From Acidobacteriota bacterium (GTDB lineage Bacteria; Acidobacteriota; Thermoanaerobaculia; UBA5066; Gp7-AA6): 64,000 nt of DNA. A model generated the notes under the pieces. That model was not told the DNA's origin. It worked only from the letters and a program-made list of their open reading frames with translations, and ran no database searches. Below are positions 10,057-58,931 of the stretch, in pieces (position 1 is the first letter of the stretch; every line of letters begins with the position of its first letter). The stretch lies in the NCBI GenBank assembly GCA_039933215.1, contig JBDTOO010000015.1, positions 4,501 to 68,500 on the forward strand, in the 5' to 3' direction. The position numbers were made by a program, and so were the translations under genes.

Positions 10057-10737
10057 TCAGCGCGGTGAGTCGGGTCCCGCGTCCTTCGCGAGATCTGGCA
10101 GCCCGAGCCTCCGGCGGATCGCCCGGAAGTACTGGACGGGCTCCTCGCGCCACGCCTTCTCCTGCGCGGACGCCGGGAACTTCCCTCCGAGATCTCCGAG
10201 ATACACGTACGAGACGCGGCACGCGTCGGTCCCCGCCGGCTCGATCCGCGTTTCGCCCTCCACCCGCTCGATGCGCGTCCCCTCTTTCGGGTCCCCGGGA
10301 CGCGCATCCGCCGTCCAGTGGATCCGGAACACGCCTCCAGGCTCCTCGACGCTTTCGTACCGCACGATCGCGTCCCGATTCGAGAAGGGAAAGGGATACG
10401 GCCACACGAAGTGGATGCGCGCCGCGCCTCCGGCCGCTCCCCCGAGCACGTCGGCTTTCTTGACCGCGGGCGCGAAGAGTTCCCGGTAGCGGGAGAAGTC
10501 GGAGAGCGCCGCGGCGACGCGCGCGGCGGACGCGGGGATCGTGCCGCGGCCGCGGATCCAGGGAGGGCTCGACGGAGAGCGCGCGATCTCGATCTGGACG
10601 CCTCGCGCGGTGAACCAGCGCGAGAAGGCGCCGTCCTCGGGAACGGGGACCGCGAACCCCGGGGCCACGGCGAGCAGGAGGCCCGCCGCGATTCCGAGCC
10701 GCAGTCGAAGCCCGCCACTTCCCCGAGCGCCGCTCAC
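10057..10737 (-). CDS. SRPBCC/START-fold (polyketide-cyclase-like) secreted protein or lipoprotein
   Basis: The C-terminal ~200 aa of ORF 10057..11262 have SRPBCC-like character (IHFVWPYPFPFSNRDAIVRYESVEEPGGVFRIHW). Proposed GTG start at 10737 overlaps the upstream stop (GTGA). That start gives a signal peptide VSGARGSGGLRLRLGIAAGLLLAVAPGFA. Confidence 0.55.
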   Translation of the reverse strand: MSGARGSGGLRLRLGIAAGLLLAVAPGFAVPVPEDGAFSRWFTARGVQIEIARSPSSPPWIRGRGTIPASAARVAAALSDFSRYRELFAPAVKKADVLGGAAGGAARIHFVWPYPFPFSNRDAIVRYESVEEPGGVFRIHWTADARPGDPKEGTRIERVEGETRIEPAGTDACRVSYVYLGDLGGKFPASAQEKAWREEPVQYFRAIRRRLGLPDLAKDAGPDSPR

Positions 10738-20679: not shown

Positions 20680-22590
20680 TCAGCGGCCGAAGAGCTCGCT
20701 GTCGATCGCTTCGCCCGCCTCGACGCGCCGGCGTGCTTCCCGCCGTGCGTCGGCGAGTCGGGGCAGATCGCCGATCGGGTCGGCGACGCGCAGAGACGGC
20801 AGGCCCGATTGCCGCACGCCGAGGAGGTCGCCCGGACCCCGGACCTCGAGGTCGCGCTCGGCGATCACGAAACCGTCGGAGGTCTCCTCGAGGACGGCGA
20901 GCCGCGAGCGCGCCTCGAGGGTCGCGTTCTCCCCGACGACGAGTGCGCACCAGGACGGCCGCGCGCTCCGCCCGACGCGGCCGCGCAGCTGGTGGAGCTG
21001 CGCGAGGCCGAACGACTCGGCGTTCTCGACCACCATCACGGTGGCCTCGGGCACGTCGACCCCGACCTCGACGACGGTCGTAGAGACCAGGATGCCGATC
21101 TCTCCGCGCGAGAAGGCGCGGAGCACGCGGGAGCGCTCCTCGGGAGGCAGCCGTCCGTGGAGGACGCCGACGGCGACTCCGCCCGCCGCGGCGGCGATCC
21201 GCTCCGCCGTCTCCCGGGTGTCGGAGACCTCCCGCTCCCCCTCTTCGATCGCCGGCACGACCACGTAGGCGCGCTCTCCGAGGCGCACGCGCTCGGCGGC
21301 GAAGGCATAGATCCGGTCCCGCGACGAGGCTTCGCGCACGCGCGTGGCGATCGCCCCACGGCCCGGAGGCTTCTCATCCAGAACGGACAGATCGAGCTCG
21401 CCGTAGATCGCCCAGGCGAGGGACCGCGGGATCGGGGTCGCGGTCATGACGAGGACGTGGGGGCTCTCCCCCTTCCGGAACAGGCGTGTCCGGTGCGCGA
21501 CGCCGAACCGGTGCTGCTCGTCGATCACGACGAGAGCGAGGCGCCGGAAGCGAACCGGAGCCTCGACCAGGGCGTGCGTTCCGACGAGCAGATCGACGTC
21601 CCCCCGCTCGAGCGCCGCCAGGAGCTCCTGCCGGGGTCGGCCGCGGACCCGTCCGGTCAGGAGGCCCAGCCGGACTCCCGCCTTCTCCATCCAGCCCGCG
21701 AGGCTGGCGGCGTGCTGCTCCGCGAGGATCTCGGTCGGCGCCATGAGAGCGCCCTGGGCGCCCTGGGCGGCCGCCAGAAGGAGGGCGAGCCCCGCGACGA
21801 CCGTCTTGCCGCTACCGACGTCGCCCTGGAGAAGGCGCGCCATCGCGCGTCCGGAACCGAGGTCCGCGGCGATCTCGCGGACCGCCCGCTTCTGAGCCCC
21901 CGTGAGCGCGAACGGCAGCGAAGCGCGGGTGCGCGCCCGCAGGGCGTCGTCCGCGACGAGGACGATCCCGGCGCGCTCCCGGAGCGCGGCGCGGCGGCGC
22001 TCGATGCCCGCGGCCAGAGCGAGGAGCTCTTCGTCGGAGAGCGCGCGCCGCGCCTCTTCGGCCTCCGCGACAGACGAGGGGAAATGGACTCCCTCGAGCG
22101 CCTGCCGCAGCTCCGCGGCGCTCCCGGATGCCGCCGGCCAGTCCGTCCCCAGCCGGTCCAGGGTCCCTCGCACCAGGGTTCGCCAGGCGCGCGGCGCGAT
22201 GCCGGCGGCGCGATGGTAGACGCCGACGATGCGCCCCGAATGGAGCGGGTCGCCGGCGGCCGCGGAGGGGTCGAAGAACTCGGTCTCCGGGTTCTCGATG
22301 CGCAGCTCGCCGCGGTTGCCGACGGCCGGCGTCCCGAAGAGGACGGCCGTCGCCCCCTCGGCGCTCTTCGCGAAGGAGGGGTAACGGTTGTGCCAGACGA
22401 CCCGGACGGCTCCCGTTCCGTCGTCCGCGACGGCCTCGATCCGCAGCGTGCCGCGGCGCATGCGGGTGGACTTGACGCTCGTCAGGCGGACGCGGATCGT
22501 GGCGGGAGCGCCGGCCGACAGCGCGGAGACGTCGGCGAAATGCCCGCGATCCTCGTACCGGAAGGGCAGCGCCACGAGGAAATCGCCCAC
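20680..22590 (-). CDS. recG: ATP-dependent DNA helicase RecG
   Basis: 636 aa. Wedge domain followed by SF2 helicase motifs (LQGDVGSGKTVVA Walker A; DEQHRFG; VMTATPIPR; QLHQLRGRVGR). Confidence 0.85.
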   Translation of the reverse strand: MGDFLVALPFRYEDRGHFADVSALSAGAPATIRVRLTSVKSTRMRRGTLRIEAVADDGTGAVRVVWHNRYPSFAKSAEGATAVLFGTPAVGNRGELRIENPETEFFDPSAAAGDPLHSGRIVGVYHRAAGIAPRAWRTLVRGTLDRLGTDWPAASGSAAELRQALEGVHFPSSVAEAEEARRALSDEELLALAAGIERRRAALRERAGIVLVADDALRARTRASLPFALTGAQKRAVREIAADLGSGRAMARLLQGDVGSGKTVVAGLALLLAAAQGAQGALMAPTEILAEQHAASLAGWMEKAGVRLGLLTGRVRGRPRQELLAALERGDVDLLVGTHALVEAPVRFRRLALVVIDEQHRFGVAHRTRLFRKGESPHVLVMTATPIPRSLAWAIYGELDLSVLDEKPPGRGAIATRVREASSRDRIYAFAAERVRLGERAYVVVPAIEEGEREVSDTRETAERIAAAAGGVAVGVLHGRLPPEERSRVLRAFSRGEIGILVSTTVVEVGVDVPEATVMVVENAESFGLAQLHQLRGRVGRSARPSWCALVVGENATLEARSRLAVLEETSDGFVIAERDLEVRGPGDLLGVRQSGLPSLRVADPIGDLPRLADARREARRRVEAGEAIDSELFGR

Positions 22591-22718
22591 GGTCGCGATG
22601 CCGGCGTCCGCCAGCCGAGCCGCGCGCGCCGGACCGATGCGGGGGATCGACGCGACCGGGTCTCGAGGCCGGAGAGAGGCGGCGAGACCGGGCGGCGACG
22701 AGAGGCGGTCGATCGGGC

Positions 22719-23507
22719 TCAGGATTCCGCGCTGAAGAACGTGAGAGGGACGAGGCCGAACTTCAGGACGTCGGCGTTCTGGATCGCCATGGGAGCGCCC
22801 GTGGCGAGACGCTGATCATTGACGAACGTGCCGTTCATGACGCCGATCTCCTCCATCACGTAAAACGTTCCGGCCATCTGGTAGAGCTTCGCGTGGCGCC
22901 GCGAGGTCGAGCGCTGAGTGTCGAGCGGCGTGAGGTCGATGTCGGGAGTGATTCCCGTGACGGGGTCGGCGCGTCCCACGAGGGTATCGCCTTCACGGTT
23001 GAGGAAGAACTCGGGAGTCCCGTTCGCGCCGACGAGGCGGAACACGTCCTTGTGGACGACGGGTTTTCGCGACGGCGGCCTTTCCTCGTCCGGAACGCGG
23101 CGGCCGAGGGCTTCTTCGAGCATCGTCGAGACGTCCCGGACGCGGCGCGAGAGCTTTCGCATCATCCGGATGGCGATCTCCGTGTTGCTGCGGAGCATCG
23201 TGTCGAACATCGCGCCGTTGATCCGCACCACCTCGACGTCCGACTTCGCCCGCGCCGACGCGCTGCGGGGCAGATCCTCGAGGACGCTCATCTCGCCGAA
23301 GAAGTCGCCCTTCTCGAGAGTCGCGAGGACACGGCTCTCCCCCGCGATCGACTTGAAGAGCTCGACCACTCCGGACTGGATGATGTACATCTCGGTCCCG
23401 ATCTCGCCCTCGGAGAAGATGATGTCTCCCATCGGGTGGCTGACGATGTACCGCTCGAAGGGATTCTTGCCTCCGGCCGCGGTCCCCGACTTGAAGACGG
23501 CTTTCAC
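22719..23507 (-). CDS. Cyclic-nucleotide-binding domain protein fused to a C-terminal FHA domain
   Basis: N-terminal cNMP-binding fold (GEIGTEMYIIQSGVVELFK...GDFFGEMSVL). C-terminal FHA fold (TLVGRADP...RRHAKL...GTFYVMEEIGVMNGTFVNDQRL). Confidence 0.7.
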   Translation of the reverse strand: MKAVFKSGTAAGGKNPFERYIVSHPMGDIIFSEGEIGTEMYIIQSGVVELFKSIAGESRVLATLEKGDFFGEMSVLEDLPRSASARAKSDVEVVRINGAMFDTMLRSNTEIAIRMMRKLSRRVRDVSTMLEEALGRRVPDEERPPSRKPVVHKDVFRLVGANGTPEFFLNREGDTLVGRADPVTGITPDIDLTPLDTQRSTSRRHAKLYQMAGTFYVMEEIGVMNGTFVNDQRLATGAPMAIQNADVLKFGLVPLTFFSAES

Positions 23508-24544: not shown

Positions 24545-24940
<396 letters not shown>

Positions 24941-37376: not shown

Positions 37377-37835
37377 CTACTGGGTCGCGGAAGTCAGAGG
37401 CTGTACGTCGACCGTCAGCACGGTCGTGACGTCGCGGTGGAGCCGGATGTGGACGGTGTGCTGCCCGATGCGCTTGATCGGCTCGGCGACCTCGATGCGC
37501 CGCCGGTCCACCTCGACGCCCCGCGCGGTCAGCGCGTCGGCGATCTCGGTCGCGGTCACGGAACCGTAGAGCACGCCCTCGTCGCCGGCCTTCTTCGTGA
37601 TGGCGACGGTCAGGCCCTCGATCTTCTTCGCCGTCTCTTCGGCGCCGGTGCGCTGGTGCGACATCTTCTCGTCGTACTTCTTCTTTTCCTCCGAGAGCCT
37701 CCGCACGTTGGCGTCGTTCGCCTCGTAGGCGACGCCCTGGGGGAACAGGAAGTTGCGCGCGTAGCCGGGTTTGACGGTCACCGTGTCGCCGCGGTGCCCC
37801 AGTCCCCGAACGTCGTCTGCCAGGATCACTTTCAT
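37377..37835 (-). CDS. rplI: 50S ribosomal protein L9
   Basis: ATG verified at 37833-37835 (MKVILADDVRGLGHRGDTVTVKPGYARNFLFPQG...). The upstream 47 aa of ORF 37377..37976 overlap the DUF2232 gene and are rejected. Confidence 0.9.
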   Translation of the reverse strand: MKVILADDVRGLGHRGDTVTVKPGYARNFLFPQGVAYEANDANVRRLSEEKKKYDEKMSHQRTGAEETAKKIEGLTVAITKKAGDEGVLYGSVTATEIADALTARGVEVDRRRIEVAEPIKRIGQHTVHIRLHRDVTTVLTVDVQPLTSATQ

Positions 37836-38815
37836 GGCTGCTTTTCCGCTTTCTCGCCTCGGTGGCGAAAGTCCGCGTACCAGTCGAAGATGCCGAGGAG
37901 GCCGACCCCCACGTTGAGTGGGAAGTAGACGACCAGGGCGTAAAGGCCGGCGCGGAGGATTCGCGCCCGAAACCACTTCCGGGCGAAGTGGCAGATGATA
38001 GAGAGGCCCGTCAGAAAATACAAGGCCGCCAGGGGGATCAGGATGTCCCCCGCCCAGGGACGAAGGTCCGCGGGGAGGAGCAGGAAGCCGGCCCCCGCGC
38101 CCACGAAGAGCGCGACGACGCCCGCGGGCAATCGGAGCTCCTCGAAGCGCACCGACTCCGCCGAGGGGGCTGGCCGGGCCGACCGGGCCCCGAAATAGAA
38201 GGAGATGGCGGCAGCGATCGCCCAGGACGCTCCCACGAGGCCGAGCCAGTAGGCCTGTGCGAACTCTTTGAACCGCCGGAACGTCGCGGCCATCCGGGCG
38301 GAGGTCTCGCCGTCGACCCCGGAAGACGGGGCGGCGGCGGCCGGAGACATGGCGTCGAAAGCCTTCCCGATCTCCACGGCGAGCGGCGGCGCCCCGGCGC
38401 TCTCCCGAAGGATCAGGACGCCCGCGAGGAGACCGAACCCGACGGCGGAGAGCAGCAGGAACCCGCGCGACGGGGCCATGCCCCGCCGGACGAGCCCCGT
38501 GAACAACACGGGCAGGAGCGTCGCCGCGAGCCCGAGGGACGCCCCGGCGAGGGCCTCGGCGGCGCTGCCGCTCGCGAAACCCAGTCCCGCGAGCACCGCG
38601 GCCGCGAGAAGGCTGCCGCCGGTCCCCGCCGTCAGGCCCCGCCGGTGGGTCAGCCGGACGAGCGGGACACCCGCGAAAGCGAGCGCGAGCGATCCCGCGA
38701 TCGGCAGCACGAGGAAGAGCGCGAAGAGGAGCGCCGACGAGAGCCCGGCGAACAGGGCCTCGATGAGGACGCTCCCCTTCTTCCGCGCGTCCGGCGCGGC
38801 GGATTCAACTTCCAT
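37832..38815 (-). CDS. DUF2232 (YybS-like) polytopic membrane protein
   Basis: 327 aa, multiple TM helices. Same position as B. subtilis yybS upstream of rplI. 4-nt overlap with rplI. Confidence 0.7.
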   Translation of the reverse strand: MEVESAAPDARKKGSVLIEALFAGLSSALLFALFLVLPIAGSLALAFAGVPLVRLTHRRGLTAGTGGSLLAAAVLAGLGFASGSAAEALAGASLGLAATLLPVLFTGLVRRGMAPSRGFLLLSAVGFGLLAGVLILRESAGAPPLAVEIGKAFDAMSPAAAAPSSGVDGETSARMAATFRRFKEFAQAYWLGLVGASWAIAAAISFYFGARSARPAPSAESVRFEELRLPAGVVALFVGAGAGFLLLPADLRPWAGDILIPLAALYFLTGLSIICHFARKWFRARILRAGLYALVVYFPLNVGVGLLGIFDWYADFRHRGEKAEKQP

Positions 38816-38880: not shown

Positions 38881-39171
38881 TCAGTCCGTCGCGTATGGCA
38901 GCAGCGCGATCGACCGGGCGCGTTTGATCGCCGTCTGGAGCTTGCGCTGATGGAGGGCGCAGGTCCCCGAGATGCGGCGCGGGAGGATCTTTCCGCGCTC
39001 CGGGATGAACGACTGGAGCAGCTTGATGTCCTTCCAGTCGACGTACTCGATGTGCTCCGCGCAGAACTTGCAGACCTTCCGGCGGCGTACGAAGAACTTC
39101 TTGCGGCCGGTGGGCTTGCCGTCACGCTCCTTGGCGTTGCGCCCACCCGAACGGCTCGGCATGGCGGTCAT
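38881..39171 (-). CDS. rpsR: 30S ribosomal protein S18
   Basis: 96 aa. Conserved CKFC...IDYKD-like core ([25 protein letters not shown]...[14 protein letters not shown]). Confidence 0.9.
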
Positions 39172-39599
39172 GATTCACTCCTTGAGTTCGTTTCGCCGGC
39201 CATGGAGGCTGGGCCCGGGGACGCGCCTTCGGCCTGGACGGGTGCGGGGCGCGGAGGACGCTTCAGCGCTTTCGCCTTCATCTTCTCGGCGCTCTTCGCG
39301 GCGCGCTTCAGCTCTTCGTCCGCGCGCACCGACAGGTGCCGGAGAACCTGGTCGGAGAGCTTCAGCCGGCGCTCGAGCTCCGCGACGATCGGGGGCTCGG
39401 CGTTGACCTGGAGGTAGTGGTAGAACGCCTCCTTCTTACGCAGGATGGGGAAGCCCAGGCGCCGGCGGCCCCACGGCTCTTCCTTGACGATCTCCGCTCC
39501 GCCGTCCGTCAGAATCTTCTTGTAGTCGCCCGCGAGCTTGGTCGCGTCTTCTTCCGACAGGTCCGGGGTCACCAGGATGACGATGTCGTACAGCCTCAT
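39168..39599 (-). CDS. rpsF: 30S ribosomal protein S6
   Basis: 143 aa ([17 protein letters not shown]...[10 protein letters not shown]...). 4-nt overlap with rpsR. No ssb lies between them. Confidence 0.9.
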
Positions 39600-39620: not shown

Positions 39621-40223
39621 TCAATCCGGACCCGAGGCGGGGTCCGGAGAGGAAGGTTTAGGATTCGCGCTCCTCATGGCGGCGTCGATCCCGTCGGTGA
39701 TCCAGATCCGGAGCGCGTCCGCCGCGCGGCCGATCGCGGCCTCGAAGACCTCGCGCTCCCCTTTCGCGAAGGGCTCGAGCACGTAGTCGGCGAGGTCGCG
39801 GTCCCGGGAGTAGCGCTCGCCCCGGATGCCGATCCGCAACCGGGGAAACTCGCTCGTCCCGAGGGCCGAGATGATGGACTTGATCCCTTTCTGTCCCCCC
39901 GCGGAGCCCCGCGCGCGCATACGCAGGATCCCGAGGGGCAGGTCGATGTCGTCGGAGACGACGCAGACCTCCGAGGGTTCGATGCCGTTCTTGTTGCAAA
40001 GAGCTGAGACGGCCTCACCCGAGGCGTTCATGTAAGTCTGGGGCAGGGCCAGGACCACTGGCTCTCCGGCGATGCGCCCGCGGCCGACGCGCGACTGCGC
40101 CTCCCGCGAACGGATCCGGATTCCCTCCTGCTCGGCGAGGGCCTCCACCACGCGGAACCCCGCGTTGTGGCGCGTGCCCTCGTAACGGTCCCCCGGGTTG
40201 CCGAGACCGACGATGGCGCGCAG
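39621..40223 (-). CDS. pth: Peptidyl-tRNA hydrolase
   Basis: The conserved N-terminus (L)RAIVGLGNPGDRYEGTRHNAGF is encoded immediately after the rplY TAG stop. The only possible initiator there is CTG (40223-40221); the ORF-track ATG at 40151 would delete the GLGNPG motif. The C-terminal region matches Pth. Confidence 0.8.
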   Translation of the reverse strand: MRAIVGLGNPGDRYEGTRHNAGFRVVEALAEQEGIRIRSREAQSRVGRGRIAGEPVVLALPQTYMNASGEAVSALCNKNGIEPSEVCVVSDDIDLPLGILRMRARGSAGGQKGIKSIISALGTSEFPRLRIGIRGERYSRDRDLADYVLEPFAKGEREVFEAAIGRAADALRIWITDGIDAAMRSANPKPSSPDPASGPD

Positions 40224-40226
40224 GCC

Positions 40227-40934
40227 CTACTTCTCCTTCTTCTCCGCTTTCTTGTCGGGCTTGGCGTCCTTGTCCGCGCCCTCTTCGTCGGTCACGACCT
40301 TGCCCTTCTTCAGAACCTCGGGCTCCGCGGCCGCCTCGGCTCCTTCGACCGGCACCGCCGCCGCGATCTCCTGGGTCGGCTGCGCGACGTGGACGATCAC
40401 CTTTTCCGGGTCGTCGACGATCTCGACACCCTCGACCGTCTTCAGGTCCTTGATGCGGATCGCGTCGCCGATGCCGAGCTCGGACACGTCGAGCGGAAGG
40501 TGCGCGGGGATGTTCCCGGGAAGGGACTCGATCTCGACCTCACGCGTGACCATGTCGAGGATGCCGCCGTCCGTCTTCACGCCGCGGGCGACGCCCACGA
40601 TCTCGATCGAGACGAAGACGCGGATCTTCGCGTCCATCATGACGCGCACGAAATCGATGTGGAGGGCCTTGCGCGACAAAGGATCCTTCTGGAGCTCCTT
40701 GATCATGGCGTGGCGGCTCTGATCCGAGCCCGCGAGCTTCAGGAGGAAGATCGCGTTCTCCCCCGCCCCGTTGCGGAACGCGTCGGAGAGCGACTTGCGG
40801 TCGACGACGATGGGTACGGTCGCCTTGCCCGCCCCGTACACGATCGCCGGGATCTTGCCGGAGACGCGGGTCCGGCGGGCTTCATTCTTGCCCCGCGAGG
40901 AGCGCTTTTCGACGTTCAGTTCGATGGTCTTCAT
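40227..40934 (-). CDS. rplY: 50S ribosomal protein L25 / general stress protein Ctc
   Basis: 235 aa. L25 beta-barrel N-domain (MKTIELNVEKR...IPAIVYG) plus Ctc-type C-terminal extension and Lys/Glu-rich tail. Confidence 0.85.
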   Translation of the reverse strand: MKTIELNVEKRSSRGKNEARRTRVSGKIPAIVYGAGKATVPIVVDRKSLSDAFRNGAGENAIFLLKLAGSDQSRHAMIKELQKDPLSRKALHIDFVRVMMDAKIRVFVSIEIVGVARGVKTDGGILDMVTREVEIESLPGNIPAHLPLDVSELGIGDAIRIKDLKTVEGVEIVDDPEKVIVHVAQPTQEIAAAVPVEGAEAAAEPEVLKKGKVVTDEEGADKDAKPDKKAEKKEK

Positions 40935-40994
40935 TCGTTTCCCCGCGCGGAAAGCCGCGCAAAACGTTAGATCCTATACGAAAAACGGGGGATT

Positions 40995-41951
40995 CTACAC
41001 GAAAAGCGAGGAAACGGACGTCCCGTCGTGGATCCGCTGGATCGCCTCGCCGAGGATGGGAGCGATCGACAGCGGCTGGATCCGGGCGCACCGGGCCAGG
41101 GCGGCCTCCATCGGGACGGTATTGGTCACCATGAGGCTCTCGAGGCCCGAGGCCTCGATCCGCTCGATCGCCGGGCCGGAGAGCACGGGGTGAACGGCCG
41201 CCGCGTAGGTCCGGCGCGCGCCCTGGCGCCGGAGCGCCGCCTCGGCCTGGACGAGAGTTCCGGCTGTGTCCACGATGTCGTCCAGGATCAGGACGTCCTT
41301 GCCCTCGACCTCTCCGACGACGTTCAGGACCTCCGTCTCGTTCTTTCCCGTCCGCCGCTTGTCGATGATGGCGAGCGAAGCCCCGAGCCGTTTGCCGATC
41401 GCACGGGCCCGTGCCACCCCGCCGACGTCCGGCGAGACGATCACGAGGTCTTCGAGCTCGAGCTTGCGGATCGCGTCGAGGAGAACCGGGGCGGCGAAAA
41501 GGTGGTCGACGGGGATGTCGAAGAAGCCCTGGATCTGGGCCGCGTGCAGGTCCATGGTCAGGATCCGGTCCGCCCCCGACGCCGTCAGGAGGTCGGCCAT
41601 GAGCTTGGCCGCGATCGGCACGCGCGGCTTGTCCTTCTTGTCCTGCCGCGAATAGCCGAAATAGGGCATCACCGCGGTGATCCGCGAGGCCGAAGACCGG
41701 CGGAAGGCATCGAGGAGGATGAGCAGCTCCATGACGTGGTCGTTCACCGGCGAGCTCGTGGGCTGGACGATGAACACGTCCGCGCCGCGAACGTTCTCGT
41801 CGATCTGGCAGTAATTCTCGCCGTCGGAAAAATTGTAGAGCGTCAACTGCCCGAGGGGGATCTCGAGGTAAGCGCAGATCTCCCGGGCCAGCGCCGGATG
41901 CGCGCGCCCGGAAAAAATCTTCAGGTCGCCGTAAGAAAAATTAGGTCCCAA
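40995..41951 (-). CDS. prs: Ribose-phosphate pyrophosphokinase
   Basis: 318 aa. PRPP-binding motif (VLILDDIVDTAGT) and the conserved N-terminal half. Confidence 0.9.
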   Translation of the reverse strand: MGPNFSYGDLKIFSGRAHPALAREICAYLEIPLGQLTLYNFSDGENYCQIDENVRGADVFIVQPTSSPVNDHVMELLILLDAFRRSSASRITAVMPYFGYSRQDKKDKPRVPIAAKLMADLLTASGADRILTMDLHAAQIQGFFDIPVDHLFAAPVLLDAIRKLELEDLVIVSPDVGGVARARAIGKRLGASLAIIDKRRTGKNETEVLNVVGEVEGKDVLILDDIVDTAGTLVQAEAALRRQGARRTYAAAVHPVLSGPAIERIEASGLESLMVTNTVPMEAALARCARIQPLSIAPILGEAIQRIHDGTSVSSLFV

Positions 41952-42076
41952 GAGTCCCGAATTCTACACGCCAGCGATCCCTCACCCCATGCGGTTTGAG
42001 GACGCTCGACTCCTTCAACCGCCGCCACGAGAGAGAGTCGCTCACGCCCCACTGAAACAACAGCGGGAGCCGCAGC

Positions 42077-42610: not shown

Positions 42611-43475
42611 TTCGACCTCCGGGAGGCGTAGTTCGCGACACGTACTCGGCTCGTCCGAGAGTCCGGGTCCGCTCGAAGCGCGCCTCAGGGTGACGTTGCG
42701 CCAGCCAGCTCTCGGCCCCGGTGCCCGCCCCGATCAGAACGACCGTGGAGCCCGAGCCGGTGAGGCTCGAGTCCGAGCCGACTTGTCGAGCGGATTCCAG
42801 ATAGGCCTTCATCGCACCCTCTACCTCTAGCACGGCGGATGCCAGTTCATTTGGCCCGAAGAACTTTCCAGAAGTCTCGAGGTCGAGACGCTCGGCAACG
42901 CGCGCGCCCTCGCCGGTCCTTCGCGCGTGGGCCTCGAAGACCTCGCGCGTCGAAAGGGGAAAGGGCGGAATGAGAAGAAGGAGCTCGGCCGCCGGGGCGT
43001 CCGGTCGGGGAACCACGTGTTCTCCCCTTCCGGAAACGTCCGCATCGCCGCCGACCAGGAAATAGGGAACATCGCTGCCAAGGGTCGGAGCGACCCTCGA
43101 AACGATCTCCCCGGAGGGGTCGACGTCCCACAGGCGCCGCAGGAGGCGGAGCGCCGCGGCGGCGTCGGAGCTGCCGCCCCCGAGCCCCGCGCCGACGGGA
43201 ATGCGCTTGTCGAGGACGATGCGGGCTCTCGGCTCGACGCCGGCCTCGAGCGCGAGCCCGCGCGCCGCGCGGAGAACGAGGTTGCTCTCTCCGCAGTCGA
43301 GCGGCTCGCCGCGGCAAAGGAGCTCGAGCCGGTCGGAAGCCTCGACCGTCAGGGTGTCGGAGAGATCGATCGACGAGAATCGGGAGAGAAGATCGTGGAA
43401 CCCGTCGCTCCGCCGCGCTCCCACGCGCAGCTCCCGGTTGATCTTGGCCGGCGCGTCGGCGCTCCACGCGCTCAA
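42573..43475 (-). CDS. ispE: 4-diphosphocytidyl-2-C-methyl-D-erythritol kinase
   Basis: 300 aa. GHMP kinase motifs (KRIPVGAGLGGGSSDAAAAL; GSGSTV). The 3' end overlaps the spoVG start by 38 nt. Confidence 0.85.
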   Translation of the reverse strand: MSAWSADAPAKINRELRVGARRSDGFHDLLSRFSSIDLSDTLTVEASDRLELLCRGEPLDCGESNLVLRAARGLALEAGVEPRARIVLDKRIPVGAGLGGGSSDAAAALRLLRRLWDVDPSGEIVSRVAPTLGSDVPYFLVGGDADVSGRGEHVVPRPDAPAAELLLLIPPFPLSTREVFEAHARRTGEGARVAERLDLETSGKFFGPNELASAVLEVEGAMKAYLESARQVGSDSSLTGSGSTVVLIGAGTGAESWLAQRHPEARFERTRTLGRAEYVSRTTPPGGRNGHYPGQSLPGR

Positions 43476-44116
43476 CGCAGGGACTCCCGCGCCTGCAGTG
43501 TCAGCTGGAGGCGGCTCGCGCTCGACCGTTCCTCGATCGAGACTTTCCTCGGCCAGGGGTCGGCCGTCTCCCCATAGGACGCTTCGTAGGTCCGGCCGTC
43601 GCGCTCGACCCGCAGCGACGCGAAGCGCGCCTGAGCGAGGTTCAGGACCCCCTCGGCGCGGGCCGGGCCCGACCAGACGAGGAGCGCGTCGCCTCCCAGG
43701 ATGCCGCGGACCTGCGGGTCCGGATCCTTCCAGATTCCCGCGAGGAGCCAGAGGAGCGGCTCCGGCTCGATGACGACGGGCGCGAACTTCTCGCCGCGAA
43801 GCGCCCCGTTCTCGTAGACGGCGACGGGCGACCCGAATGGTCCGGTGATGGTGGCGCGGACCGGATCGCCCGTCGTCACCGCGAGAGTTCCCGGCAGCGA
43901 CGCGAGCCCCTGGCTGAGCTTCGCGTCGTACAGGAGGCGGGAGGGCCCCAGGGAGTCCGCCCGCGCGACCGCTTCGCGCCAGGCGGCGAGGGCGAGGGAT
44001 ACCTGCTCCGCTCCGGCGGGACCGAAAGACCTGGCGGGCCGGCGGGCCGCGCAGCCGCTGATTGCGAGCAGGAGGGCGCCGAGCGTGACGGCCGCGGCGG
44101 CTCGCGTGCGGATCAG
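43472..44116 (-). CDS. LolB-like outer-membrane lipoprotein (start apparently CTG)
   Basis: The reading frame of ORF 43472..43879 stays open upstream and encodes (L)IRTRAAAAVTLGALLLAISGC, a lipobox signal peptide. No ATG/GTG/TTG occurs in any frame between the TPR-gene stop and the signal peptide. CTG at 44116 with GAGG 9 nt upstream is the best initiator. Position upstream of ispE matches the common lolB–ispE order. Confidence 0.5.
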   Translation of the reverse strand: MIRTRAAAAVTLGALLLAISGCAARRPARSFGPAGAEQVSLALAAWREAVARADSLGPSRLLYDAKLSQGLASLPGTLAVTTGDPVRATITGPFGSPVAVYENGALRGEKFAPVVIEPEPLLWLLAGIWKDPDPQVRGILGGDALLVWSGPARAEGVLNLAQARFASLRVERDGRTYEASYGETADPWPRKVSIEERSSASRLQLTLQARESLR

Positions 44117-53153: not shown

Positions 53154-54179
53154 TCAGGCTTCGGTGCTCTCCGCGGTGCGGTCGCGCAGGTCGCGGATCG
53201 CGTCGCGGAGGGCCGCCGCGGTGCGAGAGGGCCTCGTGCTTTCCTGCGGGAGCCGCGCGGCGTAGTCGGCGACGCGATCCGCCGCCTCGCGGCGCCTCTC
53301 TTCGGAGACGGTCTCCTCGACCTGGCGCACGGAGGCGGGATAGTCCTCGATCCGGCTGCACACGAGAAGGAGGTCGCACCCGGCGCGCAGCGCCTCGGCC
53401 GCGCGGTCGGGCACCTCGCCGAATGCGCTCAGAGCGCCCATCTCGAGGTCGTCCGAGAACGCCGCTCCCCGGAACCCGAGGGAGCCGCGAAGAAGAGCCG
53501 TCGCGCGCGCCGGCGAGAGCGTGGACGGGAGGCCGTCCGGACCGGCCGCGTGCGAGATCATGACGGCCCGCGCGAGATCCATGGTGGCGGCGAACGGCGC
53601 CAGGTCCCGGCTCTCCTCGTCGGGATCGTCCGGAAGAAACGGAAGCGCCTGGTGCGTGTCGAGATCGGCGCGACCGAGCCCCGGAAAGTGCTTCACGCAT
53701 CCGCCGGTCCCGCTGGCGTGGAGTCCGTCGAGGAATGCGGAGGCGGCGGCAATGATCCCTTCCGGATCGCCCGCCGCGCATCGCCCGGCGAGGACGCGCT
53801 CGGAGGCGCCCGGCAGCATGCGGTCCACGACGGGCGCCAGATCCACCTGGACGCCGAGCAGCCGGCAGGCTTCTCCCGCGATCTCCCCCGCTTCGCGGGA
53901 GAGACCGGAGCGCGCCGCGTCGCGAAACGCCGCGGAGGCTCCCAGGATCTCGCGGAAGCGGTCGACAGGACCCCCCTCCATGTCGACGCACACGAAGGGT
54001 CGGCCCGGAAGGTCGCGCAGCTCGCGCGTCAGAGCCTGAACGCCCTCGATCGATTCGACGTTGCGGCGGAAGAGCACGATCGCCCCGGGCGGATCCCGCT
54101 CGAGGACCCGGCGTTCCTCCTCGGTCAGCGCCGGGCCGGAGATCCCGACGCCGAAGAGCCCGGCGGCGGGCGCCGTCAA
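53154..54179 (-). CDS. nagZ: Beta-N-acetylhexosaminidase NagZ (GH3)
   Basis: The C-terminal 341 aa of ORF 53154..55916 contain the GH3/NagZ signature KHFPGLG(R) and the AIVLFRRN N-terminal block. Proposed TTG start overlaps the mutS stop (cTTGA). The rest of that ORF is mutS in another frame. Confidence 0.75.
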   Translation of the reverse strand: MTAPAAGLFGVGISGPALTEEERRVLERDPPGAIVLFRRNVESIEGVQALTRELRDLPGRPFVCVDMEGGPVDRFREILGASAAFRDAARSGLSREAGEIAGEACRLLGVQVDLAPVVDRMLPGASERVLAGRCAAGDPEGIIAAASAFLDGLHASGTGGCVKHFPGLGRADLDTHQALPFLPDDPDEESRDLAPFAATMDLARAVMISHAAGPDGLPSTLSPARATALLRGSLGFRGAAFSDDLEMGALSAFGEVPDRAAEALRAGCDLLLVCSRIEDYPASVRQVEETVSEERRREAADRVADYAARLPQESTRPSRTAAALRDAIRDLRDRTAESTEA

Positions 54180-56680
54180 GAAGGTGCCTTCAGCCTCTCC
54201 TGCAGGGACGAGAGCAGGGACAGCGCCGCGATCGGCGTCAGCCGGTCGCAGTCGACTTCCCGCAGCTTCTCGAGAACGAGCCCTTCGTCCGACGAGAAGA
54301 GGAGGATCTGCCCGTCCCCGGCGCTCGCGCCGGCGTGCCGGGCGAGGACCGGCGCCCCCTGCACGTCGAGCTCCTGCTTTTCCAGGTTCGACAGGACCTC
54401 TCGCGCGCGGGCGATCACCTCGGGAGGAAGCCCGGCGAGCTCGGCGACCTGGATCCCGTAGCTCCGGTCGGCCGTGCCGGGCACGACCTTGCGGAGAAAG
54501 ACGACCTTTCCGTTGATCTCCTTGACCGCCATCGTCGCGTTGGCGATGCCCGTGCGGACGAGCGATATCTCGGTGAGCTCGTGGTAGTGGGTCGCGAACA
54601 GCACGAAGGCCGCGCGGTCCGCCGCGTCGTGGAGGTGCTCGACGATCGCCCACGCGATCGACAGGCCGTCGAAGGTCGACGTTCCGCGCCCGACCTCGTC
54701 CAGAATGATGAGGCTGCGTCCGGTCGCGCCGCGCAGGATCGCCGCGGCCTCGAGCATCTCGACCATGAAGGTGGACTCCCCCCGCGAGAGATGATCGGCT
54801 GCGCCCACGCGGGTGAAGATGCGGTCGAATATCGAGAGCTCGGCCTTCGTCGCGGGAACGAAGGAGCCCGCCTGCGCGAGGAGCACCGCCGTCGCGACCT
54901 GACGCAGGTACGTCGACTTGCCGCCCATGTTGGGGCCCGTGACGACGAGGATGCGCTTCTCGGGAGAAAGATCGCAGTCGTTCGGGATGAAGGGCTCCTG
55001 CCGGCGCACGGCCTCGACGATGGGGTGCCGGGAATCCGTCAGGCAGAGCCGGGGCCGCGCGGAGAGCTTCGGCCGCACCCACCGCCCGGACTCCGCCGTT
55101 TCGGCGAAGCTCGCCAGAACATCGAGTCCCGCGGCCGCCGTGGCCGCGGCGGCGACGCGCCCGGCCGCCTTCGCGAGCTCGGTCAGCAGAGCGTCGTAGA
55201 GGCGGTCCTCGATCGCTCCGATCTTTTCTTCCGCGCCGAGAATCTTCTCTTCGAGCTCCTTCAACGCGGGCGTGACGAACCGCTCCGCGTTCGCGAGCGA
55301 CTGGCGCCGGATCCAGTCGGCCGGAACACGGTCGCGATGCGCGCTGCCAACCTCGAGCGAATAGCCGAAGACGCGGTTGTAGCGCACGCGGAGGTTGGCG
55401 ATCCCGGATCGCCTGCGCTCCTCCGCCTCGACGGCCATCAGGGCGCCCTGGGCATCCTGACGAAGCGATCGAAGCGCGTCGAGCTCCGCGTCGGCGCCCT
55501 CCCGGATGGAGCCGCCCGCCGAGGCGAGGATCGGAGGTTCGGGCGCGAGGGTCGTCTCGACGCGCCGGACGACGTCGTCGACGGCGGGGATTCCGTCGAG
55601 AAGCGATCGCAGGCGGCGCGAAGCGAGGTGCTCCCCCGCGGCGGCGACGCCGGGCAGGGCCTCGAGCCCCTCCGCCCAGGCGGCGACCTCGCGGGGGCCG
55701 GACACGCCCGCCGCGATGCGCGCGAAGCGGCGCTCGATGTCGCCGACGTCGTCGAGCGCGGCCTGGAGCGCCTCGCGCGCCGCGGGTGTCCGGACGAGCT
55801 CTTCGACGGCGTCCCAGCGCGCCTCGATCTCGACGGGATCGGTGGATGGCCGCGCCAGCGTGTCCCGCAAGGCGCGCGCGCCGAGCGGTGTGCGGGTGCG
55901 ATCGAGCAGCGCGCACAGGCTCGACCCCGTCGTGCCGTCGGACGACTCGAAGAGCTCGAGCGTCGCGATCGCGGCCGCGTCGATGCCCATGCGCTCGCCG
56001 AATCGCAGCGGCTCGGCCTCCGCGAGGTGCGCCGCGCCGCCCGGCCTCAGTTCAGCGGCGTACGCCCGGGCCGCCGCGGCCGCTCCGACGCCTCCGGAGC
56101 GTCGGCTCTCCGCGAACCACTCGGCCGAGCGGCGGGTTTCCGCGGCGCCCGGAGGGACGGGCGCCGAAGCGCCGTCCGGCAGGAGGAGCTCGCGCGGCCG
56201 GAAGAGAGCCATGGCGTCGGCGAGACGATGCCGGGGGACGCTTCCGGAGAAGAACCGCCCGGTGGAGAGGTCGAGGAACGCCGCGTCCCAGTCCCCGTCC
56301 CCGGGCACCAGCGCGGCGAGGTACGACGGCGCGCCCGGGACGAGGGACTCGGCGTCGAGCACCGTTCCAGGCGTGACGATCCGGGTTATGTCGCGCCGCA
56401 CGAGCCCCCTGGCGGCGCGGGCGTCCTCCATCTGGTCGCAGATCGCCACCTTGCGGCCCGAAGCGACGAGCTTCGCGATGTGATGGTCGACGCTGTGGTA
56501 CGGCACGCCGCACATCGGGGCCTCGATGTCGGAATCCTTGTTGCGGGCCGTCAGGGCGATCCCGAGGATCGGCGCCGCTTCCCGGGCGTCCTCGAAGAAC
56601 ATCTCGTAGAAGTCGCCCATCCGATAGAGCAGGATGGCGTCCGGCGCCCGGCTCTTCATCTCGAAGTACTGCCGGAGCAT
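54176..56680 (-). CDS. mutS: DNA mismatch repair protein MutS
   Basis: ATG verified at 56678-56680 (MLRQYFEMKSRAPDAILLYRMGDFYEMFFEDA, the canonical MutS N-terminus). Walker A GPNMGGKST. The ORF-track extension to 57514 overlaps tsaB and is rejected. Confidence 0.9.
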   Translation of the reverse strand: MLRQYFEMKSRAPDAILLYRMGDFYEMFFEDAREAAPILGIALTARNKDSDIEAPMCGVPYHSVDHHIAKLVASGRKVAICDQMEDARAARGLVRRDITRIVTPGTVLDAESLVPGAPSYLAALVPGDGDWDAAFLDLSTGRFFSGSVPRHRLADAMALFRPRELLLPDGASAPVPPGAAETRRSAEWFAESRRSGGVGAAAAARAYAAELRPGGAAHLAEAEPLRFGERMGIDAAAIATLELFESSDGTTGSSLCALLDRTRTPLGARALRDTLARPSTDPVEIEARWDAVEELVRTPAAREALQAALDDVGDIERRFARIAAGVSGPREVAAWAEGLEALPGVAAAGEHLASRRLRSLLDGIPAVDDVVRRVETTLAPEPPILASAGGSIREGADAELDALRSLRQDAQGALMAVEAEERRRSGIANLRVRYNRVFGYSLEVGSAHRDRVPADWIRRQSLANAERFVTPALKELEEKILGAEEKIGAIEDRLYDALLTELAKAAGRVAAAATAAAGLDVLASFAETAESGRWVRPKLSARPRLCLTDSRHPIVEAVRRQEPFIPNDCDLSPEKRILVVTGPNMGGKSTYLRQVATAVLLAQAGSFVPATKAELSIFDRIFTRVGAADHLSRGESTFMVEMLEAAAILRGATGRSLIILDEVGRGTSTFDGLSIAWAIVEHLHDAADRAAFVLFATHYHELTEISLVRTGIANATMAVKEINGKVVFLRKVVPGTADRSYGIQVAELAGLPPEVIARAREVLSNLEKQELDVQGAPVLARHAGASAGDGQILLFSSDEGLVLEKLREVDCDRLTPIAALSLLSSLQERLKAPS

Positions 56681-56806
56681 CGGTGTGGCGCGGGCGCCCG
56701 CGACGCTCACGGCCGCCCTCGGAGCGGATCGTGCGCGTCGCGTCGACCCTGTTTGCCGGGGATGTCCATGGATCCGGGTTAGCATACCGTCGGAACGGTC
56801 AAGCCA

Positions 56807-57454
56807 TTGAGGACGACGACTCCCATCCTCGCGATCGACACGGCGAGCCCGTCTCCGGCCGTCACGCTCGCCGTCGGCGGGCGCGAATACGACGAGGCCC
56901 TCCCCGGGGACCGGCAGGCCTCCGAGCGGCTCCTCGGCGCGATCGAGGAGTGCTCGAGACGGGCGGCCGCGCCGCTTTCTTCCTTCGGCCTGATCGCGGT
57001 GTGCTCCGGTCCCGGATCCTTCACGGGCGTCCGGGTCGGGCTCGCCACCGCGTGGGGACTCGGCCGCGCCCTGGGCGTCCGCGTCGAAGCCGTCTCCACT
57101 CTCGACGCGATCGCGGAGGCGGCCCGCGCGGACGGACTCGATCGCGTGGCGGCGGCGCTCGACGCCGGCCGCGGGGAGATCGTGTGGCAGGCCTTCGATC
57201 TCGGCGGACCTCGCGCCCGGCCGTTCGGCGCCTCGCGGCGCGAGACCCCGGAACGCGCGCGGGACGAGGCCGGAGACCTGCCGTTCGCGAGCCGGCCCGC
57301 GGGGCTCGTCCCCGGTCCGGCGATCGACCTGCCGCCGCTGCTCTCCCCTTCTCTCGCCCGCGCCGCCGCCCGCGCTCCGTCGCTGTCCGAAGGAGCTCTC
57401 GCCGCGATCTACTCGCGCCCGAGCGCCGCCGAGGAGAAGCGTGGCGCTCCGTGA
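56807..57454 (+). CDS. tsaB: tRNA threonylcarbamoyladenosine biosynthesis protein TsaB
   Basis: 215 aa (ILAIDTASPSPAVTLAVGG...GPGSFTGVRVGLATAWGL). Confidence 0.8.
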   Translation: MRTTTPILAIDTASPSPAVTLAVGGREYDEALPGDRQASERLLGAIEECSRRAAAPLSSFGLIAVCSGPGSFTGVRVGLATAWGLGRALGVRVEAVSTLDAIAEAARADGLDRVAAALDAGRGEIVWQAFDLGGPRARPFGASRRETPERARDEAGDLPFASRPAGLVPGPAIDLPPLLSPSLARAAARAPSLSEGALAAIYSRPSAAEEKRGAP

Positions 57455-57941
57455 GCCCCGCGCGCGGCCGTACGAGGTCGCGGCGGCCCGCCCCGCGGAT
57501 CTGGATGAGATCACGCGGATCGAAAGGGAATCCTTCCTGGTCCCCTGGAAGAGGGAGTTCTTCGCGACCGAGCTCGCGGAGCCGTACCGGTACGCGCGGG
57601 TCCTGGCTGGCGGCGGCGCCGCGGAGCCGCGAATCGGCGGCTACCTCTTCGCCGTGTCGCTGTACGAGGAGTTCCACATCAACAAGATCGCGACGGACGT
57701 CCGCCTGCGCCAGCAGGGCTACGGACGGCTGCTGCTCGAGGATGCCCTCTCGCGCGCGAAAGGCGTCGGAGCCGCGGCGATCACGCTCGAGGTGCGCGTT
57801 TCGAATCTGCCGGCGCGCGAGTTCTATCGTTGCTACGGGTTCCGGGAGGCCTACCGGCGAAAGGGCTATTACCAGGATGGCGAAGACGCCTTCGCGATGG
57901 TCCTCGCCTTCGACGAAAAGCGCTCCCCCGGCTCGACTTAG
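57441..57941 (+). CDS. rimI: Ribosomal-protein-alanine N-acetyltransferase RimI (GNAT)
   Basis: 166 aa. GNAT motif A (RQQGYGRLLLEDAL). Classic tsaB–rimI pairing with 14-nt overlap. Confidence 0.8.
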   Translation: MALREPRARPYEVAAARPADLDEITRIERESFLVPWKREFFATELAEPYRYARVLAGGGAAEPRIGGYLFAVSLYEEFHINKIATDVRLRQQGYGRLLLEDALSRAKGVGAAAITLEVRVSNLPAREFYRCYGFREAYRRKGYYQDGEDAFAMVLAFDEKRSPGST

Positions 57942-58056: not shown

Positions 58057-58281
58057 ATGGGAACCCAGACTCCGGATTCTCTGACGGAAGTCGACGCCGA
58101 ATACCGCCGCCTCCAGGACGCCCATCAGGATCACGAGCACCGCCTGCAGACCTACGCCGGGAAACCTCAGCTTTCCGAAGACGAAGAGATCGAAGAGAAG
58201 CGCCTGAAGAAAGAGAAGCTCGCCATCAAGGACCGCATGGAGGCGATCGCGCGCAATTACCGGGAAGGGGTCACGCACTGA
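58057..58281 (+). CDS. DUF465 (YdcH-like) small protein
   Basis: ATG at 58057 with AAGGAGG 9 nt upstream. 74 aa with a conserved HEHRL...LS..EE.E..RLKKEKL.IKD block. The first 27 aa of ORF 57976..58281 are rejected. Confidence 0.6.
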   Translation: MGTQTPDSLTEVDAEYRRLQDAHQDHEHRLQTYAGKPQLSEDEEIEEKRLKKEKLAIKDRMEAIARNYREGVTH

Positions 58282-58931
58282 AGTTTCCCCTTGCGAGCGA
58301 AGGCTGGAAGTTCATTCTTCCCGCGCTCGCCCTGACGGTCGCAGCCGCCGCCACCGGGCACCCGATCTGGGCGGCAGGGTTGGCGGCTCCGACCGTTTTC
58401 CTCATCTCATTCTTCCGGGATCCCGAACGCCGCCCGGCGGGGGGTCCGGAGACGATTGTCTCGCCGGCGGACGGAACGGTGCTCTCGATCGGTCCCGCTT
58501 CCGAGGCGCCGCCCGGGGCGTCCCGCCGGATCTCAATCTTCATGTCCGTCTTCAACTGTCACGTCAACCGAGCCCCCGTGACCGGCGTCCTGTCCGACTA
58601 CGCCTACAACCCGGGTCGGAAGATGGCGGCGTTCGCCGAGAAGGCGTCCCTGGAGAACGAGCAAAACCTGGTGACCATGTCGTCGGGAACCGGCCGCGTC
58701 GCGTTCAAGCAGATCGCGGGGGCGCTCGCACGCCGGATCATCTTCTATCCGAAGCCCGGCGAATCGCTCGAGCGAGGCCAGCGCGTCGGCATCATCCTTT
58801 TCGGCTCGCGGGTCGATCTCTTCCTTCCGGACGACGCCGAGGTGCTCGTCGTGAAGGGGCAGAAGGTCAAGGCGGCGCTGACGGGTATCGCCCGATGGAA
58901 GAGCTCGCCGCCTCCCCCGGCCCGGGGATGA
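58278..58931 (+). CDS. psd: Phosphatidylserine decarboxylase proenzyme (short archaeal/bacterial type), apparent CTG start
   Basis: Frame of ORF 57972..58931. The conserved N-terminus (L)KFPLASEGWKFILPAL begins at a CTG overlapping the DUF465 stop (CTGA), with GGGAAGGGG 8 nt upstream. The upstream ATG at 57972 would overlap rimI and the entire DUF465 gene. FGSR (GS[TR]) self-cleavage region FGSRVDLFLP near the C-terminus. Confidence 0.75.
   Translation: MKFPLASEGWKFILPALALTVAAAATGHPIWAAGLAAPTVFLISFFRDPERRPAGGPETIVSPADGTVLSIGPASEAPPGASRRISIFMSVFNCHVNRAPVTGVLSDYAYNPGRKMAAFAEKASLENEQNLVTMSSGTGRVAFKQIAGALARRIIFYPKPGESLERGQRVGIILFGSRVDLFLPDDAEVLVVKGQKVKAALTGIARWKSSPPPPARG

Follow-up and report, generated by a model that had tools for sequence, protein, structure and literature searches.

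A CTG codon beside the rplY stop as the likely start of pth in a clade of Acidobacteriota

We analyzed the start of pth, the gene for peptidyl-tRNA hydrolase, in a 64,000-nucleotide (nt) stretch of a metagenome-assembled genome (MAG) of a soil Acidobacteriota bacterium (GenBank assembly GCA_039933215.1, contig JBDTOO010000015.1, positions 4,501 to 68,500; this whole stretch is hereafter called the window). The gene lies on the minus strand, directly downstream of the ribosomal-protein gene rplY. The most probable explanation, in which we have good confidence, is that translation of pth begins at a near-cognate codon, the CUG at 40223-40221, and gives the complete 200-amino-acid (aa) enzyme, with initiation presumably coupled to termination at rplY and a weak start that would keep Pth output low. 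A sequence-only reading of this DNA had placed the start at this CTG after the rplY TAG, giving MRAIVGLGNPG, and the sequence, the coordinates, 60 relatives and the NCBI record of the contig agree with that placement. One detail had to be corrected: the conserved R-A-I-V-G was said to begin one codon after the TAG, where the CTG itself stands, and it actually begins two codons after it.

The rplY-pth junction and its conservation

On the minus strand the junction reads GAG AAG AAG GAG AAG TAG GGC CTG CGC GCC ATC GTC GGT CTC GGC AAC CCG GGG, and further pth codons are GAC CGT TAC GAG GGC ACG CGC CAC AAC GCG GGG TTC CGC GTG GTG. The CTG is in the frame of rplY, whose C-terminal tail is rich in Lys and Glu, and it opens a frame of 200 codons that extends to the TGA at 39623-39621 (Table 1). 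The sequence-only reading had found no usable ATG, GTG or TTG ahead of the first GTG, which was borne out: the GTG at 40151-40149 is the first in-frame canonical start codon of pth and lies 3' of both the GLGNPG and the TRHNAGF motifs. A second near-cognate codon, ATC, is present at codon 4 (40214-40212).

The protein read from the CTG is a full-length member of the PTH1 family. Its residues 4-187 are covered by PF01195 (Pept_tRNA_hydro) at profile positions 2-183 of 183 (E 1.8e-63), and a sequence search of the PDB returned 36 chains of Pth or CRS2 at E <= 1e-20 (the best at 2.8e-37), with query residues 2-183 aligned to residues 3-184 of E. coli Pth (2PTH). The match includes the GLGNPG strand and the residue aligned to the catalytic His, Asn9 and His19 of the CTG-started protein corresponding to Asn10 and His20 of E. 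coli Pth. In enzymes of the PTH1 type, His20 acts as the catalytic base, and Asn10 is an active-site residue. A product started at the GTG would lose the GLGNPG strand and the equivalents of both residues, because all of them are encoded upstream of 40151. A pth gene is normally indispensable, and a second copy was not seen in the window. As judged from the reading frame, the CUG is thereby shown to be the only start position compatible with a complete Pth enzyme. The N-terminal peptides predicted for the candidate starts are (f)MRAIVGLGNPGDR or RAIVGLGNPGDR for the CTG, MVGLGNPGDR for the ATC and MVEALAEQEGIR for the GTG.

A scan of one genome per GTDB species yielded 80 pth loci, 60 of which come from MAGs labelled Thermoanaerobaculia or Acidobacteriota. 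The Pth proteins of this clade are 69-98% identical to the query, and the junction was extracted from each locus (61 sequences counting the window). The pattern AAGGAGAA[G/A] TA[G/A] NNN CTG was observed in all 60 related genomes recovered, and it is not due to chance because it is the same in all of them. The CTG at the start of pth is present in 61 of 61 sequences and never drifts, whereas the Leu7 codon of the same gene does (CTC in 43, CTG in 16). A base-call error that turned ATG into CTG, which the sequence-only reading had raised, is excluded by the occurrence of the CTG in 60 independent assemblies.

The bases around the CTG change in a manner typical of a gene boundary. Upstream, the spacer between the rplY stop and the CTG is 3 nt long in 59 of the 61 sequences, with 15 different triplets and variation at all three positions, and 4 nt long in the other two (L051 and L054). 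Within the 59 sequences with a 3-nt spacer, the Shine-Dalgarno (SD) motif AAGGAG (-15 to -10) shows little or no variation. It overlaps rplY codons, and the rplY wobble positions -13 and -10 inside it are G in 59 of 59, while the wobble positions of more upstream Lys and Glu codons vary (for example, G39/A14/C6 at -16). Downstream, three-base periodic variation begins right after the CTG: codon 2 is CGC, CGA, CGT or CAC across the clade, codon 3 is GCC, GCG, GCA or GTC, and the third positions +17, +20, +23, +26, +29 and +32 are free. As a separate observation, L051 and L054 are sister MAGs from one nanopore-based sample that have TAG-AAGC-CTG and TAA-GAGC-CTG where their relatives have TAG-AGC-CTG.

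Outside the clade, the aligned codon is a canonical start. The sequence-only reading had proposed an alignment with orthologues to see what they carry at this position, and the outgroups were found to have ATG or GTG (Omnitrophota, Planctomycetia, Chloroflexota and Clostridia) or TTG, the latter in two Aminicenantes-type Acidobacteriota (L064 and L079) that share the same layout (TGA-NNN-TTG). In a distant Thermoanaerobaculia MAG (L066), pth has an ATG one codon upstream. The simplest history compatible with these alignments would be a single TTG-to-CTG transition in the ancestor of the clade, with the CTG retained since then. Neighboring genes keep start codons of their own: in a tblastn survey of the clade loci, rplY has ATG in 59/59, rplI has ATG in 55/55 and rpsF has ATG in 58 and GTG in one, and prs has TTG in every clade locus where its start could be placed. 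GC pressure alone does not turn TTG into CTG, because the prs TTG and the start types of the neighbors remain stable. That each gene keeps its type of start codon is the pattern expected if selection acts on start-codon strength. Four marks of a near-cognate start are found at pth: no canonical start upstream of the key residues, a homologous start elsewhere, conservation beyond that of a sense Leu codon with non-coding sequence before it, and a ribosome-binding site (RBS) at functional spacing.

Other explanations and the proposed mechanism

Translation from the ATC at codon 4, which would produce M-V-G-L-G-N-P-G and leave CTG-CGC-GCC as an untranslated leader, has little chance of being correct. 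The ATC is in frame, belongs to the known weak starts and is near-invariant (58 of 59 sequences, with ATT once), and the Pfam match of Pth begins at residue 4. However, it is conserved equally in outgroups that have an ATG three codons upstream, so that a conserved Ile explains it, and codons 2 and 3 evolve as coding sequence, with GCN varying only at the third base, unlike the spacer before the CTG, which is variable at all positions. Moreover, AAGGAG is 18 nt from the ATC as compared with 9 nt from the CTG, and the PDB homologues align from query residue 2. We assign an even slimmer chance to a restart at the CUG by elongator Leu-tRNA with no initiator tRNA, by which the protein would begin with Leu; to our knowledge there is no bacterial precedent for such an event. 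It would suit the position of all four CTG starts of the window next to an upstream stop (see below), as well as the retention of CTG rather than TTG, also in psd, where TTGA is only a synonymous C-to-T change in the upstream gene away. Against it, the conserved SD motif and the canonical starts of the outgroups fit ordinary fMet initiation, and CTC or TTG would be expected at such restart sites too.

From the frames and their conservation, both read-through of the rplY stop and a start at the downstream GTG appear very unlikely. Read-through would produce an L25-Pth fusion, or a product processed from it, with no initiation at the CTG. In its favor, 59 of 61 sequences keep pth in the frame of rplY, with a single codon between the stop and the CTG. 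Against it, the stop switches between TAG (49) and TAA (12), the leaky TGA being absent, the spacer codon shows no constraint, and in two species the 4-nt spacer puts pth in another frame. There is no stimulatory context and no conserved RNA structure at the junction (alifold consensus -2.4 kcal/mol; single-sequence z-score 0.2), no suppressor tRNA is present in the window, and read-through would leave a conserved SD motif at start-codon distance without a role. An invariant CTG would also be unexpected for an internal Leu codon, given that Leu7 drifts. A reassigned TAG was considered separately and ruled out: TAA replaces it in 12 species, and TAG ends 14 of the 48 open reading frames (ORFs) of the window. 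Least probable of all is a pth that starts at GTG 40151 or is a decaying pseudogene. Such a start appears in gene calls from Logan, ENA and JGI and in one NCBI record, which give 175-aa proteins from the GTG (for example, the call at 9705-10232 in L161). However, that product would have neither the GLGNPG strand nor the residues aligned with Asn10 and His20, and the 24 codons upstream of the GTG are conserved at the amino-acid level in 60 species; a pseudogene is hardly compatible with a normally essential gene that has no second copy in the window.

For the preferred explanation, initiation at the CUG, we propose the following course. Initiator fMet-tRNA would read the pth CUG in the same way as other near-cognate starts in bacteria, so that the product would begin with Met. 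Most of the initiating ribosomes would come from termination at the rplY stop, 3 nt upstream (termination-reinitiation), and the SD motif would hold them in place. The CUG would then reduce Pth output sharply while leaving transcription of the ribosomal genes farther downstream as it is, and a need for low Pth would explain why selection keeps CTG and never TTG, GTG or ATG. This step-down rationale for the invariance of the CTG is the hypothesis we prefer. The geometry required for coupling is found at each of the four CTG starts of the window: the distance to the upstream stop is 3 nt at pth (4 nt in two species) and 10 nt at the lipoprotein gene, and psd and recG begin in CTGA overlaps. TGA is missing as the rplY stop (0/61), although it closes 32 of the window's 48 ORFs; a TGA there may have been selected against because leaky read-through would run into the in-frame pth, or because it would create an out-of-frame GTG (AAGTGA).

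Several points weigh against this explanation. The CTG start of pth is supported by an assignment made from the sequence of an uncultured, metagenome-derived source. The CUG could be a stronger start in this lineage than it is in E. coli. Coupling is inferred from geometry only, and the strong SD motif 9 nt upstream could equally drive ordinary de novo 30S initiation. The 4-nt spacers of L051 and L054 each contain one more A within a short run of A in nanopore-based assemblies and could be indel errors, although the presence of these MAGs in different bins with different stops favors a real inherited insertion. Finally, the bias of CTG starts toward gene junctions described below is suggestive and may stem from the stand-alone starts, only some of which were compared with homologues.

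CTG starts at other gene junctions

The sequence-only reading had reported similar apparent CTG starts in psd and in a LolB-like gene. Junction sequences and homologues back both of them, and recG emerged as a fourth case (Table 1). Our gene map of the window, based on our own tally and hand curation, contains about 16 co-directional junctions at which a start lies within 25 nt of the upstream stop. The starts at these junctions are ATG in seven cases, GTG in two, TTG in three and CTG in four. Among about 35 stand-alone genes, none requires a CTG start, and about 4 of 50 genes in the window have one overall; the difference between junction and stand-alone genes gave p ~0.007 in a one-sided Fisher test done by hand, in which not all of the stand-alone starts had been checked against homologues. 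The window also has nine NTGA overlaps (three ATGA, one GTGA, three TTGA and two CTGA; for example, 39168-39171, 37832-37835, 43472-43475, 22719-22722 and 58278-58281), and it looks as if such overlaps place little constraint on the first base of the start codon. In two further 20-kb pieces from the clade, psd is the sole CTG case among 15 and 21 called genes. CTG starts thus look like a matter of a few percent of genes in the regions sampled, which were not chosen at random.

One of these cases is psd, for phosphatidylserine decarboxylase. Its next in-frame canonical codon is a TTG at codon 35. A metagenome scan provided 40 distinct psd sequences (64-70% identical), all 40 of which have CTGA; their next canonical start is 2-88 codons downstream, and nearly all of them lack an in-frame canonical codon upstream. 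Among the Psd homologues predicted in the protein collection, the N-termini are uneven and fall at various internal GTG, ATG or TTG codons. The last codon of the gene upstream of psd is CAC, AGC or AAC, and the synonymous C-to-T change that would convert the overlap into TTGA was never seen. The psd start is in a GTGA overlap in L121 and L123 and is ATG in more distant loci. The DUF465 label of the upstream gene comes from Pfam matches of its orthologue in L170 and L171, two loci that have psd CTGA and share contigs with the pth-CTG loci L046 and L049. The M at the Psd N-terminus of several NCBI proteins (P0002, P0016, P0019, P0023 and P0036) was rejected as a sign of ATG, since in NCBI records every start codon appears as M.

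The lipoprotein gene upstream of ispE, which corresponds to the LolB-like gene, had no Pfam match. The signal peptide of its homologues consists of a basic n-region and a hydrophobic core followed by the lipobox G-C-A-[S/T]-R, and in the window no canonical start exists between the in-frame stop and the lipobox. A GAGG motif is located 8 nt upstream of the CTG, and the arrangement GAGG-N8-CTG-ATC is kept in L161, a 78%-identical relative. The CTG of this gene is young, because more distant homologues have canonical starts. The first canonical GTG of recG comes at codon 75 of the stop-to-stop ORF, past the beginning of the RecG wedge match, and relatives translate the region upstream of that GTG. 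At the DNA level, L169 has CTGA, and in L167 the ORF opens with a CTG that comes immediately after a TAG. Exact look-ups of the recG and lipoprotein products with CTG, ATC or GTG starts found none in the protein collection. A possible fifth CTG start at the rpsR/DUF2232 junction (CTGA at 38881-38884, in the DUF2232 frame) was discarded after the rpsR stop was found to vary among TGA, TAG and TAA in relatives; the start of DUF2232 is likely the ATG at 38815.

The location of these four CTG starts beside upstream stops suggests weak starts fed by translational coupling, and the weak-start logic of pth seems to extend to psd, recG and the lipoprotein gene. A broader proposal, which we put forward tentatively and consider somewhat more doubtful than not, is that CUG is a regular, selectively kept start codon for several percent of the genes of this lineage, specifically at coupled junctions (CTGA, or a CTG no more than ~10 nt past a stop). 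If so, reinitiating ribosomes, or an altered initiation factor 3 (IF3) or initiator tRNA, would relax first-base discrimination in the lineage, and standard gene callers would systematically truncate a class of its proteins. In either case, four stop-adjacent CTG starts provide a natural data set on the question of whether termination-reinitiation relaxes start-codon selection in bacteria.

Table 1. Coordinates of the pth junction, of the other genes with CTG starts and of nearby elements in the window
Feature	Coordinates	Strand	Remarks
rplY (ctc, ribosomal protein L25/TL5)	40227..40934	-	PF01386 and PF14693 matches; ATG start, TAG stop 40229-40227
Shine-Dalgarno motif AAGGAG	40233..40238	-	Formed by AAG GAG at the end of rplY; 9 nt upstream of the CTG
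Spacer GGC, rplY stop to pth start	40224..40226	-	Non-coding; variable among relatives
pth CTG, probable initiation codon	40221..40223	-	Invariant in the clade; canonical start in outgroups; NCBI protein MEO8430900.1
pth, PTH1-family peptidyl-tRNA hydrolase, 200 aa	39621..40223	-	PF01195, PDB Pth chains; TGA stop 39623-39621
First in-frame canonical start of pth, GTG, codon 25	40149..40151	-	Used by most gene callers; Pth truncated to 175-176 aa
rpsF, next gene of the operon	39168..39599	-	ATG 21 nt past the pth stop; own GAGGAGG site
psd (phosphatidylserine decarboxylase)	58278..58931	+	CTG 58278-58280 overlaps TGA 58279-58281 of a DUF465-like gene (CTGA)
Lipoprotein gene upstream of ispE ("LolB-like")	43472..44116	-	CTG 44116-44114, 10 nt past the TPR-gene TGA 44129-44127
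recG	20680..22722	-	CTG 22722-22720 overlaps TGA 22721-22719 of a cNMP-binding/FHA gene (CTGA)
Extended -10-like box, TGTAGAAT	40992..40999	-	Overlaps the prs stop; only promoter-like element seen

Known systems, annotation and neighboring elements

A weak start on a translation-related gene is familiar from infC, whose conserved AUU start is autoregulatory: IF3, its product, discriminates against such codons, and output tracks IF3 activity. The pth start resembles it in that a weak near-cognate codon is maintained on a translation-related gene, and differs in that the codon is CUG rather than AUU and stands at a gene junction; no sign of feedback by Pth or IF3 was seen for pth.

A close published parallel is rpsL (S12) of Deinococcus-Thermus, which has a lineage-conserved CTG start (Baudet et al. 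2010, PMC2830850). Like rpsL, pth is a housekeeping gene whose CTG is the sole workable start, is kept lineage-wide, is missed by gene callers and was found by alignment of orthologues. Unlike rpsL, for which there is peptide evidence, pth is known here from sequence alone, and its CTG lies 3 nt past a stop in a ribosomal-protein operon, with at least three more stop-proximal CTG genes in 64 kb. Further CTG starts named in the same paper are those of Deide_03051 and of the plasmid RepA of E. coli, and reporters in E. coli initiate from CUG at 1-2% of AUG (Hecht et al., 10.1101/063800). These cases agree with pth in showing that bacterial ribosomes can initiate at CUG, weakly; however, they are single-gene or synthetic examples in E. 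coli, whereas pth is a chromosomal, essential gene with this start in 60 species. In mycobacteria, CUG is regarded as rarely used, and a paper on M. tuberculosis treats it as a non-start (Kipkorir et al. 2024, PMC11260477).

Termination-reinitiation coupling has been described at ATGA/TGATG overlaps (Huber et al. 2019, PMC6728339), and for M. tuberculosis at NUGA overlaps (PMC11260477). The junctions reported here resemble those systems in that stop and start overlap or lie a few nt apart and the SD motif is inside the upstream coding region, and psd and recG share their 4-nt overlap geometry. In contrast, the published overlaps, to the extent that these texts list them, are of the ATG type (AUGA, UGAUG), whereas N is C in two of the nine NTGA overlaps here, and coupling is deduced here from geometry. 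A literature search for a CTG start on pth, for CTG starts in Acidobacteria and for CTGA coupled starts found nothing relevant, although the search was incomplete and is weak evidence of absence. A CTG start is a known kind of feature, and public annotation already has pth and psd correct; the present case adds to the known ones in how deeply the codon is conserved, how strongly the embedded SD motif is constrained and how four stop-proximal CTG starts cluster in one 64-kb window. Because it stays unchanged across 60 species and stands amid the genes of a ribosomal-protein operon, the weak start of pth would offer a natural example of expression tuning by the start codon.

The NCBI record of this 70,437-bp MAG contig annotates Pth as a 200-aa protein beginning MRAIVGLGNPG (MEO8430900.1) and Psd as a 217-aa protein beginning MKFPLASEGW (MEO8430919.1), both from the CTG. 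Truncated versions of 175 aa and 184 aa are found in other sources and in another NCBI record (P0274), and the lipoprotein is cut to 135 aa even at NCBI (P0121). Most automatic calls truncate these proteins: Pth of 175 aa loses the region aligned with the catalytic His, Psd is left without its first membrane segment, the lipoprotein without its signal peptide and lipobox, and RecG calls in relatives often begin past the N-terminal helix-hairpin-helix region. NCBI annotation rescues only those proteins that have a family model.

The operon has the order rplY-pth-rpsF-rpsR-DUF2232-rplI. The extended -10-like box at 40999-40992 is, judged by its sequence, a candidate promoter of these genes. Consensus scans detected neither a promoter-like nor a terminator-like site between rplY and pth, and no terminator-like site on the minus strand from prs to rpsR. 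A search for an Rfam leader or regulatory RNA near the operon gave none, the only matches being RNase P RNA and a tRNA. The 5' leader of rplY (40935-40990, minus strand) contains a GC-rich hairpin, GCGCGG-CTTT-CCGCGC, just upstream of the RBS region; it has no Rfam match and could be a leader that regulates the ribosomal-protein genes. In the start region of prs (41949-41966, minus strand), another extended -10-like box is located only 8-10 nt upstream of the TTG start; it is TGTAGAAT in the window and 'tagaat' or the variants 'tacaat' and 'tatgat' in most clade loci (L002-L077). This spacing suggests a leaderless or very short-leader prs mRNA beginning at the UUG, which would be unusual.

Three additional observations were made elsewhere in the window. 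In mutS (54176-57640, minus strand), the frame is open for ~318 codons upstream of MutS_I, a stretch that overlaps a rimI-like acetyltransferase gene (56994-57941, plus strand), and the start is probably the GTG shortly before ...ATPMLRQYFEMK. At 10635-10727 on the minus strand, ARAGORN predicts a 93-nt tRNA-Pro (CGG) that scores below the gathering threshold of the Rfam tRNA model; it could represent a tRNA of unusual length, one with an intron, or a false prediction. An RNase P RNA of class A (Rfam RF00010, 273 bits) was located at 24548-24929 on the minus strand, between an LD-carboxypeptidase gene and an unannotated ORF.

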